IMG/VR virus record: IMGVR_UViG_2829740473_000003
Span: 3,016 to 67,015 of that record
Length of the DNA stretch: 64,000 nt
Reading direction: 5' to 3' (one strand)
DNA from: a virus
Taxonomy: Duplodnaviria; Caudoviricetes
Shown: piece after piece, positions 302 to 26,396 of the stretch
Layout of the letters: each line of letters starts with the position of its first letter
Numbering within the stretch: position 1 is the stretch's first letter
Notes under the pieces: generated by a model
The model's database searches: none
Told to the model about the DNA's origin: nothing
What the model saw: only the letters and a program-made list of their open reading frames with translations
Made by a program: the position numbers and the translations under genes

Positions 302-1015
302 ATGACAAACGGCAGCTTAAAACGTCTCCATCTAGGGGCCTCCTCGCTAGAATTGTTATCTCAGACGCCTACTGCCGAGTTCATCGACTCGTCATGGGTT
401 CATCTTGGAGATGAACCCAACTATGATGCGCGCTCCGATACGGGCACCATCAAGTCAAAAGCAAGATCTATTGCGAAGAGAATCTTACGCAAGGGCCGTG
501 TGGTCAAGTCGGACGGGGCTAGTGATCTATATAGAAAGACAGATTTCAGGCAGTGGATGTTTAATAGTGGTGATAAACTTCCATTCGACGATAATAGAAT
601 TTCCTTCATTTATTCAGAGCACGTCCTTGAACATTTTCGCTTTGACATCGCAGTTGAATTGCTGGCGGAGTCCTATCGGGTGCTTCAGCCCGGAGCAGTA
701 ATCCGCACCGTTGTCCCAGATGCGGATTATCGGACTTATGAGGCGCCCGAGCCGGTTGGATATCCAGGCCGCGCTTTGGCGTTCAATCACCCGAACAAGC
801 ACAAAGTCCGGTGGAACGCCTATATGCTTGGAAGGACGCTCGCTTTTGTTGGCCTGAAGCCCGTCAATATCGTGTGGTGCGATGAAAGCGGAAATTACAT
901 CAGAAACAATCCCGCAGAGATTTATGAACCAAACAGCGTCGACTTCGCAATGTCCTCGACTCTACGCTACGTTCAGCGGCCAACGTCTTTGATCGTCGAT
1001 GGCGTAAAAGCCTGA
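302..1015 (+). CDS. Class I SAM-dependent methyltransferase (Methyltransf_11-like), phage moron
   Basis: LPF..FIYSEHVLEHF..LLAESYRVLQPGAVIRTVVPD motif; visibly AT-richer than its flanks; opposite strand to the late operon. Confidence 0.75.
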   Translation: MTNGSLKRLHLGASSLELLSQTPTAEFIDSSWVHLGDEPNYDARSDTGTIKSKARSIAKRILRKGRVVKSDGASDLYRKTDFRQWMFNSGDKLPFDDNRISFIYSEHVLEHFRFDIAVELLAESYRVLQPGAVIRTVVPDADYRTYEAPEPVGYPGRALAFNHPNKHKVRWNAYMLGRTLAFVGLKPVNIVWCDESGNYIRNNPAEIYEPNSVDFAMSSTLRYVQRPTSLIVDGVKA

Positions 1016-1036
1016 CGCGCGAAGCGCGTTTGTTTG
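1016..1036 (+). terminator. Intrinsic terminator of the methyltransferase gene
   Basis: ACGCGC-GAA-GCGCGT hairpin followed by TTGTTT immediately after the stop codon. Confidence 0.5.
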
Positions 1037-1040
1037 ACGC

Positions 1041-1274
1041 TCATGCCAGCTCGTAGCCTAGGGCTACGAGCGCGGCTGCCGGCGAGAGAACCGGCTCATT
1101 TGGGAGAAGCGGCGCGGCGTGCTCCTGCCCATCCGACCCGACCCCAAGCAACCACATACGGCCCGATGATGCATGGTAGGCAAGGCGCATGAAAGAGAGC
1201 CCGTCAGAGAAAGGTAGGATCGGCTCGGACAGGTCGTAATAGCCGTCCTGCGCGAGGGTTGCGGTCTTGCTCAT
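1041..1274 (-). CDS. Hypothetical phage protein (77 aa), last visible gene of the late operon
   Basis: ATG at 1274 (MSKTATLAQDGYY) preceded by an AGGAGA RBS, just downstream of the SGNH gene. Confidence 0.6.
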   Translation of the reverse strand: MSKTATLAQDGYYDLSEPILPFSDGLSFMRLAYHASSGRMWLLGVGSDGQEHAAPLLPNEPVLSPAAALVALGYELA

Positions 1275-1285
1275 GTCGGGTCTCC

Positions 1286-2722
1286 TCAAGCCACCAGAGG
1301 CAGCATTTCGTTGGCGTAGGCGGAGGCCATGCGGCCGGCGAAGTACATAGTCCCCTTGTCGACGGGATGGACGTTGTCGCCGCCGATGTACTGACTGATG
1401 TTGGAGGACCAGCTGTAGCTCGCGTTGTTGTGCGAGCCGGTCAGCCACGGTGGCGTGGCGGTGACCAAGGACTTGTAGAAGATGTTTTGCCCCGGTCGGG
1501 CGTCACATGCCGCCTTGATTGCTGCGTCCACAGCTTGGATGCTGGAGTAGCTGCCGGAGATGGGCGCCGGACCGAACCAAAAGATCGGCGCGGAACTTCC
1601 CGGTTGGCCTCCCGCGCCGCCCCGGATCGCATCGATGCAAGCCAGAGCCTCCGCCGTGATCGCTGCCTGGTTGGAGCCAATATCGTTGGTGGATCCCTGG
1701 AGAAAGATTACATCAGGCTTCAGAGCAAGAAGCTGGGGCACCCGTTCTCGGTAGGTATAGTAGGGGCCGGTGCCGGGGTTAAGAAGCCCGGTGCCACCGA
1801 TTCCCAATCGCCACATGTCATCAACGCCGATGAGCCGCCCGAAGTGTTCGGGGAGCGTGTCGCCGAGGATAAATGGGCCATAGCTCGATCCGGCAAGATA
1901 GCTGTCGCCGAGAGCCCCGCCGCGGAGCGTACCGGGGCTCGGTGCCGGCCAGATCTGGTCGGCCGAAGTGATTGCAATTTGCATGAACGTTGCGTTGTCG
2001 CGCCCGTAGTGGATTTCCCACAGGCGCGGCTTGCGCGTGCCCCAGTCGACAACCTCCCAAAAATTGGATGCCGCAAACGGATAGATCGGTCCCGCCGTCA
2101 GAGGGCGGCCGTCACAGAAGATCCGCATGCCCGCAGTGCCGGACGGGGCTTCAAACCCGATCTTAGGGGCGTCGGACCAGAACGCGACGAAGCCTCCGCG
2201 CTGTACGGCGCCACCAACCCCGATCGTGAAGACGTTGAGGTAGGCCCGATTGGTCGCATACTGCGCGGGCGCGCACCCATTGAAAGTGAACAGGGCACGG
2301 TTTGCCCACACATCGAGCGCCGTCAATCCCGCTGGTGTACTGGTCGAATTGGTCGGCGTGAGTATAGGCTTGGCGGGGTCGTCGGCCGCATCCCAGGAGG
2401 GGCCACCGAGATGGGTCCATAGCACCCCCCCATCGCTGACGGCAGCGCCGCTGGTGTGGGTAGGCTCGGTCGCGCCGCAGGTTCCAGCACTTCCCGCGAC
2501 ATACCATTGCGCAGCGGAGTTCTTCCGCACATCGCCTTGCTTCACTGCCTGCAGGGGCACCCATGCGGATGGGCCCTCCCACGGCCGCGTCCACAATGGA
2601 CGGCCAGCCGCAAGCGCCTGCTGAAGGCGGGTCTTGAGGGCGGCGCTGCTGGTGCCCCAGTTTTGGGCGGTCTGCTCAGGGCTCGCCGCCAGCCCCAGTG
2701 CCAGAGTGCCGATCGCGCTCAT
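1286..2722 (-). CDS. SGNH/GDSL hydrolase-domain tail-associated protein
   Basis: Blocks GDSY, GIGGTG, GSTND and DNVHP; N-terminal W...GD...W...G carbohydrate-binding-like segment. Confidence 0.75.
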   Translation of the reverse strand: MSAIGTLALGLAASPEQTAQNWGTSSAALKTRLQQALAAGRPLWTRPWEGPSAWVPLQAVKQGDVRKNSAAQWYVAGSAGTCGATEPTHTSGAAVSDGGVLWTHLGGPSWDAADDPAKPILTPTNSTSTPAGLTALDVWANRALFTFNGCAPAQYATNRAYLNVFTIGVGGAVQRGGFVAFWSDAPKIGFEAPSGTAGMRIFCDGRPLTAGPIYPFAASNFWEVVDWGTRKPRLWEIHYGRDNATFMQIAITSADQIWPAPSPGTLRGGALGDSYLAGSSYGPFILGDTLPEHFGRLIGVDDMWRLGIGGTGLLNPGTGPYYTYRERVPQLLALKPDVIFLQGSTNDIGSNQAAITAEALACIDAIRGGAGGQPGSSAPIFWFGPAPISGSYSSIQAVDAAIKAACDARPGQNIFYKSLVTATPPWLTGSHNNASYSWSSNISQYIGGDNVHPVDKGTMYFAGRMASAYANEMLPLVA

Positions 2723-23691: not shown

Positions 23692-24205
23692 GGGCATCGG
23701 GGTCGCTGGGATCGCGCTCCTCGGCATCGAGGTTGTATGCCTGACGCTCCAGCGGGATCAGCCGGGCTCGAACCCTCGTCAGCTTCTCCAACAGATCACC
23801 GGGGCTTTCCTTGTCACCAAGGCATTTGCCTTCGACCGGGTCGCCGTTCAACACAGCGGCAAGGCGCGTGGCCAGGATGTTGGAGATGGCCGTCAGCTGC
23901 GTGATATCACGCCGGTGGGATTGAACGACCTGAAACCCGAGGAGAGAAGCCCCCTCCACAATGTCCCTATCGTTCGCCCGTTGCTCCTGCGAACTCGGCT
24001 GCGAACCATCACTGCGAACCAGCTTCTCGCGAACCGCCTTGCGGACCTGATCGGCGAGCGCCCGCTCCCAGCCTCTGGCCTTGGCTTCCTTCCGGATGGC
24101 GGTGTCGCTGACACCGTGCTTTTTGGCGATCTCACGGATCGAGAGCTGACCGGCGCGGTACAGGCGCTCAATCGCCTCCCAATCCGTCTTTCGCTTCTCA
24201 GACAC
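23588..24205 (-). CDS. terS: Terminase small subunit
   Basis: DWEAIERLYRAG.LSIREIA..GVSD.AIRK.AK..GW HTH; ERQAYNLD C-terminal motif. Confidence 0.85.
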   Translation of the reverse strand: MSEKRKTDWEAIERLYRAGQLSIREIAKKHGVSDTAIRKEAKARGWERALADQVRKAVREKLVRSDGSQPSSQEQRANDRDIVEGASLLGFQVVQSHRRDITQLTAISNILATRLAAVLNGDPVEGKCLGDKESPGDLLEKLTRVRARLIPLERQAYNLDAEERDPSDPDAHDGSAIELLARRLDRISSRGGAGSGSGGPDEKAG

Positions 24206-24217
24206 AGCGTCCTCGCT

Positions 24218-24376
24218 TCAATCCCTGCACCCAAGCCCCGCCGCGTAGCCGAAAGCGACCCACGGCAAGACGCACGCGAACCAGACTACGGCCTCTCCAG
24301 CAGCCGGGGCGTGACCGAGGAAGGATGATGCGAGCCCAGCCACGATGACGACGCTGCCAATCCAGATGAGGGGCAT
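24218..24376 (-). CDS. Small two-TM protein (52 aa), possible holin; not in the ORF track
   Basis: Manual translation MPLIWIGSVVIVAGLASSFLGHAPAAGEAVVWFACVLPWVAFGYAAGLGCRD; stop followed by the terS RBS. Confidence 0.4.
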   Translation of the reverse strand: MPLIWIGSVVIVAGLASSFLGHAPAAGEAVVWFACVLPWVAFGYAAGLGCRD

Positions 24377-24392
24377 TGGGTGGCCGCCTGAT

Positions 24393-24469
24393 TGGTGCTG
24401 CCGGCAGGCATCGAACCCGCGCGCTCCCGCTTACGAGGCGAGTGCTCTACCGAACTGAGCTACGACAGC
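24393..24469 (-). tRNA. trnT: tRNA-Thr(CGU), CCA encoded
   Basis: Full cloverleaf: GCTGTCG/CGGCAGC acceptor stem, GCTC/GAGC D stem, CTCGC/GCGGG anticodon stem with loop CT-CGT-AA, TTCGA T-loop, ACCA end. Confidence 0.92.
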
Positions 24470-24960
24470 GGAGGACTTCGAGAGAGGCCGGACGCGACCC
24501 CGGCCACCTTGCGGGCGGGGCACGATCCCCGCGTTGTGTCGCGCATGACGCGGGTGCTAAAGCGCCGGCTTGCCGAACGCCTACGCACCGCCAGCTACTT
24601 TCCCCTTCAAGCGGAGGCCGTTTCCTACCGGGGCACACAAGGCCCGGGTTGGCTTGCTCTCTCGAAGCTGCATCGACGTGGGCCGGGTTCATTACCGAGG
24701 CAATTGCCCCCCCTTACAGCGGGTTAGCCGCCCTTCTCAGGACAGCGCTCATCACGTCGAACTTGTGTGCGCCGTAGCGCGAAACATCGGGATCGGCAAA
24801 GGGCCCGGGCCCACCGGCTTTCGCCGTCCTCTCCCTGTCGCCGTAGCTTTCCGGCGTGCCATCGCGGGGCCGTGCCGCGCCACCTACTCGCCCGCACCAA
24901 TCGGCACTATCGCGCACCGACCTTCAACACGAGCTTTCGCGCAGGGATTTTAGGTGCCGT
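24470..24960 (-). ncRNA. Candidate large structured non-coding RNA (boundaries approximate)
   Basis: No credible ORF; several GNRA-capped hairpins and two nested long-range helices (9 bp and 8 bp) on the late-operon strand. Confidence 0.5.
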
Positions 24961-25105
24961 GCATCTAGCAGGCGATGACCAGAGGAAATTCCGCTTGCAC
25001 AGGATTGAACGTGCATTGTTGTATTACGCGCCAACTTGATGGGTCGCGGCGGCGAGAGATCCAAAGCACTCACACCGGCTCTTTAGCTTGTACGGAGGAT
25101 CGGAA

Positions 25106-25558
25106 ATGAAAGAACCAATTTTCGCATGCGATCTGGAATACATCGACATCATCAAGCCTGATGAGATCACCGAAATTGTAAGCAGCAAATCTTTCCTTGA
25201 CGGAAAATGGCTATCCAAAACAAAACATAAGCTATTTAACGAACCTGAACTTAGAAAGTATTTTATCCCAATTGATTTTTCATGTTACTCACTGCAATTA
25301 ATAAGTATAATTGAACCAGGAACTATTATACCAGAACATTCACACACAGAGACCGTATATAGATACGTTCTGGATGGCTCATTCGAGCTTAATGGTCTAA
25401 AGTTCGAGCGGGACGATTGGATATTAGTCCCAAAAGATTATAAATATTCAATTATTACAGAAACTGGATACAGAGTTTTATCAGCGTATCATGCAGAATG
25501 CCAAGAATGCCAGTGGCATACTTTGAGCAAACTTCCCCTAGGCAGGATACGGCCGTAA
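25106..25558 (+). CDS. Cupin-domain protein (AT-rich moron)
   Basis: PGTIIPEHSH..YRYVLDGSF..DWILVP cupin motifs; GGAGG RBS; markedly AT-rich. Confidence 0.7.
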   Translation: MKEPIFACDLEYIDIIKPDEITEIVSSKSFLDGKWLSKTKHKLFNEPELRKYFIPIDFSCYSLQLISIIEPGTIIPEHSHTETVYRYVLDGSFELNGLKFERDDWILVPKDYKYSIITETGYRVLSAYHAECQECQWHTLSKLPLGRIRP

Positions 25559-25742: not shown

Positions 25743-26396
25743 TCAAGCGGCGGGCTCCAGTTTCCACGTCTCAATTGCCTCCTCCCGTTCTGAGCCGAAC
25801 ATTTGGAGCAAGATTTTCGCGTTAGGTCCCTTCACTTCCACCACGGGGACGACAATGCCCTCGAAGGGGCCTTGAGAAATGCGGACCAGATCGCCACGCT
25901 TGTACTCGCGCCACGTCTTCATGAACTGCTCTTCGTCCGGCCGCACGAGCCCGTTGCGGTAGCTGCCGATCAGCTTCTTCATGCCTTCGGGCCGGACGCG
26001 GCGGGGCTCGCCGTGAACGCCGACGCAGCCGAGCACCGGGCCAATGGAAAACAGGTCGAGCCACGCCGGCACGCCCGGCACGAACCCGGCGAACACATAG
26101 CTGGGCATGAGCGGATAGGGGATCAGCTGCTTGGCCTTCTGGAACCGCGTCTTGCGGCGCCAGCGGCTGTCCGAAGGGCAATAGGTCACGATCCCCTTGC
26201 GGGACAGCAGCTCCTGCACCACGAATTCCTTCTGAGGCGCGACGCGGATCACGTACCATTCCAGGTCGCCAGCGAATTCCAGCAGCAGCTCGGCGCGCAC
26301 CGGCTTGGTGGGGCAGCGCACGATGGTGCCACGCTCGCGCGGCCGGGCACGGTAGATGGTCGGAGCAGTCTTGGGCGCCTCGGTCGTCTTGTCCAT
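25743..26396 (-). CDS. NusG-family (specialised paralog) transcription antiterminator
   Basis: NGN domain WYVIRV.PQKE..PLMPSYVF and KOW domain GDLVRISQGPFEG..ILLQMFG; occupies the lambda-Q position. Confidence 0.88.
   Translation of the reverse strand: MDKTTEAPKTAPTIYRARPRERGTIVRCPTKPVRAELLLEFAGDLEWYVIRVAPQKEFVVQELLSRKGIVTYCPSDSRWRRKTRFQKAKQLIPYPLMPSYVFAGFVPGVPAWLDLFSIGPVLGCVGVHGEPRRVRPEGMKKLIGSYRNGLVRPDEEQFMKTWREYKRGDLVRISQGPFEGIVVPVVEVKGPNAKILLQMFGSEREEAIETWKLEPAA

Follow-up and report, generated by a model that had tools for sequence, protein, structure and literature searches.

A gene-free stretch before the packaging genes of a prophage is predicted to encode a series of helix-closed RNA domains, two of them from small uncatalogued families

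The minus (late) strand of a prophage with a GC content of about 65% carries, between a NusG-like gene and the packaging genes, a gene-free stretch (24470-24960) predicted to form not one giant RNA but a row of three helix-closed RNA domains (A, B and C) ahead of tRNA-Thr. On the evidence of a small set of homologs, domains A and C appear to be real, conserved and structured phage RNA domains that belong to two small uncatalogued families. The stretch itself is non-coding, and its functional strand is the minus strand. Positions are those of the window, i.e., the whole stretch of 64,000 nucleotides of viral DNA that was analysed, and the coordinates of the features are collected in Table 1. 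There is about an even chance, in our judgment, that the stretch is the non-coding head of the late unit, whose separately folding domains would be co-transcribed with the tRNA and released as stable, trans-acting phage RNAs.

Along the minus strand, the genes are arranged in the order replication-type gene, NusG-like gene, a cupin-like ORF on the opposite strand, the gene-free stretch, tRNA-Thr(CGU), a 52-aa ORF, terS, terL, portal and major capsid protein. The host genus is very likely Xanthobacter, as one related locus is identical to a contig of Xanthobacter autotrophicus ATCC 700552. The absence of a credible ORF and the tRNA directly downstream had both been noticed in an earlier reading made from the letters of the sequence, and both are confirmed. 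Six candidate frames of 24470-24960 gave no Pfam match at E ≤ 1, the substitutions relative to homologs are spread evenly across the three frame positions with no 3-base periodicity, and none of the indels relative to homologs (of 1, 2, 5, 8 and 16 nt) is a multiple of three; the stretch is therefore non-coding. About 13% of the paired cells of module 3, the unit that forms domain C, are G.U when counted in the alignment, and since a G.U pair in domain C turns into a C.A mismatch when read on the plus strand, the structure is assigned to the minus strand. The tRNA-Thr is the sole tRNA call, and neither ARAGORN nor the Rfam tRNA model finds a cloverleaf in domains A, B or C. None of the sequencing runs listed as holding the stretch is on record as RNA. 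Two ORFs flank the array. The cupin-like ORF (25088-25558, plus strand), which separates the NusG-like gene from the RNA array, has a weak cupin match and a GC content of about 0.49 versus 0.65, and looks like an acquired cargo gene. The 52-aa ORF between tRNA-Thr and terS (24218-24376, minus strand) is strongly hydrophobic and has no family match.

Table 1. Positions of the RNA array and its neighbouring genes in the window
Feature	Positions	Strand	Remarks
NusG-like gene	25743-26396	minus	PF02357, phrog_6386
Leading hairpin	24956-24973	minus	GCCUGC-UAGAU-GCA(C)GGC; same position before the first unit in other loci (by eye)
Domain A (module 1 + UNCG hairpin)	24762-24933	minus	predicted closing helix CUCGUGU (24927-24933) / ACACAAG (24762-24768)
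Module 1 core	24782-24906	minus	about 125 nt, near-invariant; includes CGGC-GNRA-GCCG hairpin (24815-24826)
Linker hairpin	24769-24780	minus	GCGC-UACG-GCGC; preceded by GUUUC (24781-24785)
Domain B, variable insert	24673-24760	minus	predicted to be closed by UCGACGUG (24753-24760) / CACGUCGA (24673-24680)
Domain C (module 3)	24476-24669	minus	about 190 nt, multi-stem; predicted 12-bp helix GCUUCGAGAGAG (24658-24669) / CUCUCUCGAAGU (24476-24487)
Module 3 core	24511-24636	minus	alignment A6, 6 copies including Methylorubrum extorquens AM1
tRNA-Thr (anticodon CGU)	24393-24469	minus	ARAGORN; Rfam tRNA 59.2 bits; 6 nt past domain C

The composition of the stretch shows a modest enrichment of structural motifs over shuffled sequences. 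GNRA hairpins with a stem of at least 2 bp number 5 versus 1.6 expected (13 of 500 dinucleotide shuffles reach as many), perfect 8-mer inverted repeats 10 versus 4.4 (27 of 500) and perfect 9-mer inverted repeats 4 versus 1.1 (40 of 500). The sequence-only reading had named a folding energy no better than that of dinucleotide shuffles as a point against it, and the energy of the region as a whole is indeed no better: the z-score of the minimum free energy (MFE) over the 491 nt is -0.80 for the minus and +0.80 for the plus strand. Taken separately, domain A gives no thermodynamic signal (z +0.82), domain C gives -2.36, and other copies of module 3 give -3.86 (in M. extorquens AM1) and -1.56 (contig L130). 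Because the plus strand of domain C also beats its shuffles (z -2.52), folding energy carries no strand signal for this domain. With a modest enrichment and an ordinary whole-region MFE, the sequence by itself is only suggestive, and the case rests on homologs.

Family searches agree with the suspicion of the same reading that the stretch is neither GOLLD nor ROOL. At gathering scores, cmscan of the whole window against Rfam returned only the tRNA, and a scan of 24300-25150 at E ≤ 10 returned no GOLLD, ROOL or known riboswitch match; the best non-tRNA matches in Rfam 15 scored 11-18 bits against thresholds of 45-81 bits (E 1.7-9). Hammerhead and other small ribozymes, group I or II introns, 6S RNA, Y RNA and retron msr were rejected, with no Rfam match, no core motif visible by eye and no expected partner gene in the annotated loci.

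Homologs were collected by BLAST, motif scans and two covariance models, and form a small set of Xanthobacter prophages together with viral and metagenome contigs. The homologs with compensatory changes that the sequence-only reading had called for exist, for the closing helices and for several inner helices. With only 5-6 related sequences per module, covariation counts are few, and the structures were derived from the same sequences on which the following figures were counted: in alignment A4 of the module 1 core (6 copies: the window, G026 twice, G008 and two IMG/VR contigs), 95.7% of cells pair versus 35-59% in controls with slid partners, with 3 covarying pairs (C-G/U-A, G-C/C-G and U-G/U-A/C-G), while in alignment A5 of domain C (5 copies), the paired share is 97% of 298 cells, and both partners have changed in 4 pairs. 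Identity between the window and L002, one of the prophages of G026, is 87% over the module 1 alignment and 82% over module 3, compared with 70% at the synonymous third positions of terS; modules 1 and 3 are conserved above the synonymous-site level of the adjacent terS gene.

The predicted closing helix of domain A, which RNAalifold also proposes, has 7 bp in L002, L006 and L009, with U-A replaced by C-G in L009; it reads CUCGUUG/CAACGAG in L086 (by eye) and contains one C.A mismatch in the window copy. Inside the domain, the hairpin that had been read as CGGC-GAAA-GCCG is present, and its loop stays of the GNRA type among homologs (GAAA, GCAA, GCGA). A second GNRA hairpin of that reading, GC-GAAA-GC, can be found at 24933-24940 on the minus strand, but it overlaps the 5′ strand of the domain A closing helix, so that the two cannot form together. 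A pseudoknot had also been proposed for GGCCCGGG; this was not borne out, as GGGCCCGGGCCC instead appears to be a local hairpin whose sequence varies among homologs. The 9-nt direct repeat CGCCGTAGC does occur at both 24770-24778 and 24839-24847. Upstream of domain A, the leading hairpin keeps its pairing with different stem letters (by eye): GCCGGC..GCCGGC in L002 and L003, CCUGG..CCAGG in L009, L129 and L145, and GCCGG..CCGGC in L086. The linker hairpin follows module 1 in the window, L002, L006 and L009, and takes the form GCCC-GAAA-GGGC instead of GCGC-UNCG-GCGC in L086.

Domain B appears to be closed by an 8-bp long-range helix that had been proposed from the window alone and that proves to covary. 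Its two strands read UCGACGCGG/CCGCGUCGA in L009 and L012, and the same by eye in L002 and L006; in L130, the helix contains one G.U pair. In the domain B stem, the letters vary and the pairing is kept, with GUG/CAC in the window, GCGG/CCGC in L002, L006, L009 and L012, and GACGGC/GCCGUC in L129 (GGC/GCC segment; by eye). The interior, 56-102 nt long, is not alignable between loci. In domain C, one inner helix is missing from L130 with both its strands, as is the hairpin next to it, and one variable position carries different hairpins in L002, L130 and AM1. The hairpins GGCCGG/CCGGCC (24486-24505) and GCGG/CCGC (24719-24731) are both present on the minus strand as had been described. The letters of a further supposed hairpin, CC-GCAA-GG, are found at 24507-24514, but they are predicted to form one strand of an inner helix and no GNRA loop (L002 reads GCAG).

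The distribution of the domains among phages is modular. Counting RNA coordinates from window position 24960 downward, RNA 12-206 recurs in G026 (two prophages), in G008 and in the IMG/VR contigs L009 and L086, and RNA 290-484 recurs in G026, G020 and the IMG/VR contigs L129 and L130. Domains A and C occur together in only 2 of about 11 loci, the window and L002, where the three domains follow one another at spacings of 0-5 nt. Domain A is found without C in L006, L009, L086 and L004, and C without A in L003, L129, L130, X9, X14 and AM1. Two metagenome contigs fix the exact borders of the domains. X14 matches exactly 24478-24665, directly preceded by an apparent tRNA 3′ end (…CCA-GUA). X9 carries tRNA-Thr and 24386-24661 joined to 24757-24783 via a shared UUCGA; it lacks 24662-24756 and everything 5′ of 24783, so that the linker runs straight into domain C with neither A nor B. 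The X9 run is labelled RNA-Seq, but the match is an assembled contig and says nothing on expression.

Homologous arrays adjoin tRNA-Met, tRNA-Pro, tRNA-Ser and tRNA-Thr. A tRNA-Met directly follows the module 1 core in G008 (L004), and the 3′ ends of tRNA-Pro (L003, G020) and tRNA-Ser (L012) lie directly before the GUUUC-GCGC-UNCG-GCGC linker hairpin. All arrays lie in phage DNA, and in most cases packaging or head genes come next (window, L002, L009, L129, L086 and G020). In the second G026 prophage (L006, 1390-1480), an apparent tRNA T-arm and a truncated tRNA 5′ half, which ARAGORN does not call, immediately precede a truncated linker hairpin and module 1. In L009, an HNH endonuclease gene (1901-2395, minus strand; phrog_99, E 2e-60) starts right after the conserved 5′ boundary of the cassette, inside the array. 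L145 (G013:C51, about 1000-1500, minus strand) has a different inner RNA within the same framework of leading hairpin, linker hairpin, stem of the domain B type and boundary helix UUUCGAGAG/CUCUCGGAA, which suggests that boundary sequences may be common to different cassettes. The reuse of the boundary helix around other contents, i.e., another RNA in G013 and the HNH gene in L009, points to cassette exchange.

Both families are rare in the genomes searched. The covariance model of module 1 (R1) found it in 3 of 32 genomes of the genus; further R1 matches of about 22 bits in G008, G010 and G026 looked like coding DNA and were rejected. With the model of module 3 (R2), neither a sample of 150 other genomes of the order nor the other array loci yielded a further copy, and among 50,697 phage records BLAST matched nothing beyond the tRNA. 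In 400 genomes of the family, the BLAST matches were all short (E 1e-5 to 1e-2) and were judged to be chance, and a metagenome scan with GAGGACGGCGNNAGCCGGTGG gave 33 loci, all of them chance matches in GC-rich coding DNA. Scanning genome contigs for the linker motif produced chance matches within genes in Paracoccus and Oceaniovalibus. Most of the linker-motif matches came from the Thermomicrobiales MAG CAXTHM01 (L013-L055), in which more than 30 exact copies of GTTTCGCGCTNCGGCGCNCAC are spread over many contigs and probably represent an unrelated dispersed repeat.

One diverged and unannotated copy of module 3 lies outside this set, between genes on the megaplasmid of Methylorubrum extorquens AM1 (L136 4986-5168, corresponding to NC_012811.1:275523-275723). 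BLAST aligned 126 nt of it to the window, at 68% identity. In its closing helix of 15 bp, five positions differ from L130 and 14 of the 15 pairs still form. A Mom-like gene and a short ORF lie upstream and a 108-aa ORF downstream, with no tRNA within 5 kb. Used as a BLAST query, this copy retrieved nothing in phages and only itself in plasmids, and a published M. extorquens sRNA study does not cover the megaplasmid locus.

The reading to which we give about even chances is that of beads on a string, in which the interval would consist of the leading hairpin, domains A, B and C, each with its own closing helix, and tRNA-Thr. Domains A and C would be exchanged between phages as cassettes, in a slot where relatives carry tRNA genes. 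The string would be transcribed together with the tRNA; RNase P would cleave 6 nt past domain C, and the closing helices and linker hairpins would be cut by other nucleases specific for tRNA or for double strands. Such cuts could free the domains as stable small RNAs, which may act in trans on a putative partner during lytic growth. A comparable case is the tRNA cluster of bacteriophage T4, where species 1 and 2 are structured non-tRNA RNAs that share a precursor with tRNAs, are matured by tRNA-processing enzymes and have no known function. The array resembles them as structured RNA among phage tRNA genes; kinship in sequence would not be expected, and co-transcription and processing are only inferred here. 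For its location, GOLLD and ROOL are a precedent. It is the signs of cassette exchange that lead us to favour the trans-acting, stable-RNA reading.

An unlikely, though by no means negligible, alternative is that the array is a cis-acting leader of the late operon, whose domains would act on the polymerase or the transcript through NusG-like antitermination, or would stabilise or time the late mRNA. Known antitermination leader systems include the lambda PR′-tR′ leader ('6S') with Q, the put RNA of HK022 and the LoaP/RfaH signals. Like them, the array is non-coding and lies where such a leader would, after a late regulator (here the NusG-like gene) and ahead of the first late gene (terS); in L002, a classical hairpin + U5 terminator closes the array immediately upstream of terS. 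A weaker terminator-like hairpin follows the tRNA-Thr of L129, ahead of terS. In L140 (G008) and L144 (G030), at about 1430-1500, tRNA-Met is followed by an intrinsic terminator (GGGGCGG…CCGCCCC and a U-rich tract that starts UUCG), which runs straight into the UNCG linker hairpin. Module 1 of L086 lies directly ahead of head genes, and competing pairings, of ACACGAG with either CUCGUGU (module 1) or CUUGUGU (module 3), also speak for a leader. Against a leader, a tblastn search of nine homologous loci with the NusG-like protein found nothing at E < 1e-3, and the ORFs upstream of homologous arrays have no NusG domain and are unrelated to one another. The NusG-like gene thus does not travel with the modules, which weakens the specific model of a NusG-paralog leader. 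The modules also swap with tRNAs and with each other, which would not be expected of a polymerase-loading signal; in G008, module 1 sits among regulatory genes and not before late genes; and a promoter and terminator scan of the minus strand (24200-25100) found nothing in the window, with no terminator-like site between the array and terS. The terminators of L002, G008 and G030 nevertheless keep a role in transcription control in play.

The AM1 copy fits a cis role better, as module 3 stands there alone, in a 5′ UTR-like position with no nearby tRNA. In this respect, it resembles a riboswitch aptamer, as does domain C more generally, with its closing P1 helix, multi-stem junction, highly conserved unpaired stretches and peripheral hairpins of variable length. 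Unlike riboswitch aptamers, it matches no known model and, in phages, is followed by a tRNA or a terminator whose distance from it varies.

It is improbable that the whole interval folds as one composite RNA of about 470 nt, with conserved domains, a variable linker and long-range contacts, after the manner of GOLLD. The sequence-only reading had proposed a single RNA of about 490 nt; its parts are found independently in other phages. GOLLD and ROOL are phage RNAs located near tRNA islands, and tRNAs are sometimes found inside the GOLLD linker (doi 10.1101/2024.12.08.627333). The present array shares with GOLLD (RF01998) and ROOL (RF03087) a phage or prophage setting, a multi-stem and GNRA-rich structure, the lack of an ORF and a location next to tRNAs, and GOLLD, too, has a variable half and embedded tRNAs. 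It differs from them in that its units are 170-190 nt versus 500-800 nt long, occur independently and match neither model at E ≤ 10. GOLLD and ROOL form homo-oligomeric cages from RNAs of more than 500 nt; what is known of the array, from sequence only, points to separate units. The contiguity of A, B and C in the window and L002 would suit a composite RNA, as would a 9-bp complement between 24762-24770 and 24633-24641, which had been taken for a long-range helix and is indeed perfect in the window and 9 bp long, including two G.U pairs, in L002. However, this helix competes with better supported pairings, sharing bases with the covarying closing helix of domain A and with an inner helix of domain C, and its CUUGUGU partner is missing from L130, which has domain C, and from AM1. 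The rarity of loci that hold both A and C, the direct junction of the linker to domain C in X9 and the ordinary folding energy of the region also count against a composite RNA.

We consider it hardly probable that there is no RNA function at all and that the pairing is a GC-rich palindrome by-product of recent mosaic recombination or of DNA-level signals for packaging, recombination or homing: the arrays are clearly mosaic, the families rare, short repeats such as the UUCGA of the X9 deletion are shared at junctions, an HNH gene lies inside one cassette and the array adjoins terS, a common location of pac or cos sites, but conservation exceeds that of terS synonymous sites, the AM1 copy keeps its helices through changes on both sides at 68% identity, invariant G.U pairs make the pairing strand-specific, and loop types (GNRA, UNCG) are kept while the letters change.

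The locus would represent a smaller, modular counterpart, in GC-rich alphaproteobacterial prophages, of the large RNAs of tRNA islands such as GOLLD and ROOL. It adds what appear to be two compact RNA families absent from catalogues, whose borders are defined, whose GNRA and UNCG loops are conserved and whose helices covary. The short units (125-190 nt), with their predictable ends, lend themselves to Northern blots, probing and structure work, and, one copy of module 3 being present in the well-studied M. extorquens AM1, existing transcriptomes could reveal its expression. A broader proposal, which is possible but advanced only tentatively, is that alphaproteobacterial temperate phages keep an exchangeable RNA cassette slot before their packaging genes, in which tRNAs and at least two new families of ornate stable RNAs, module 1 and the module 3 that extends to Methylorubrum, would be swapped at conserved boundary helices and hairpins, released by host enzymes that process tRNA and double-strand RNA, and act in trans, e.g., as decoys or sponges against host factors. 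If this cassette reading is true, the array would offer a handle on how phages trade in non-coding RNA cargo.
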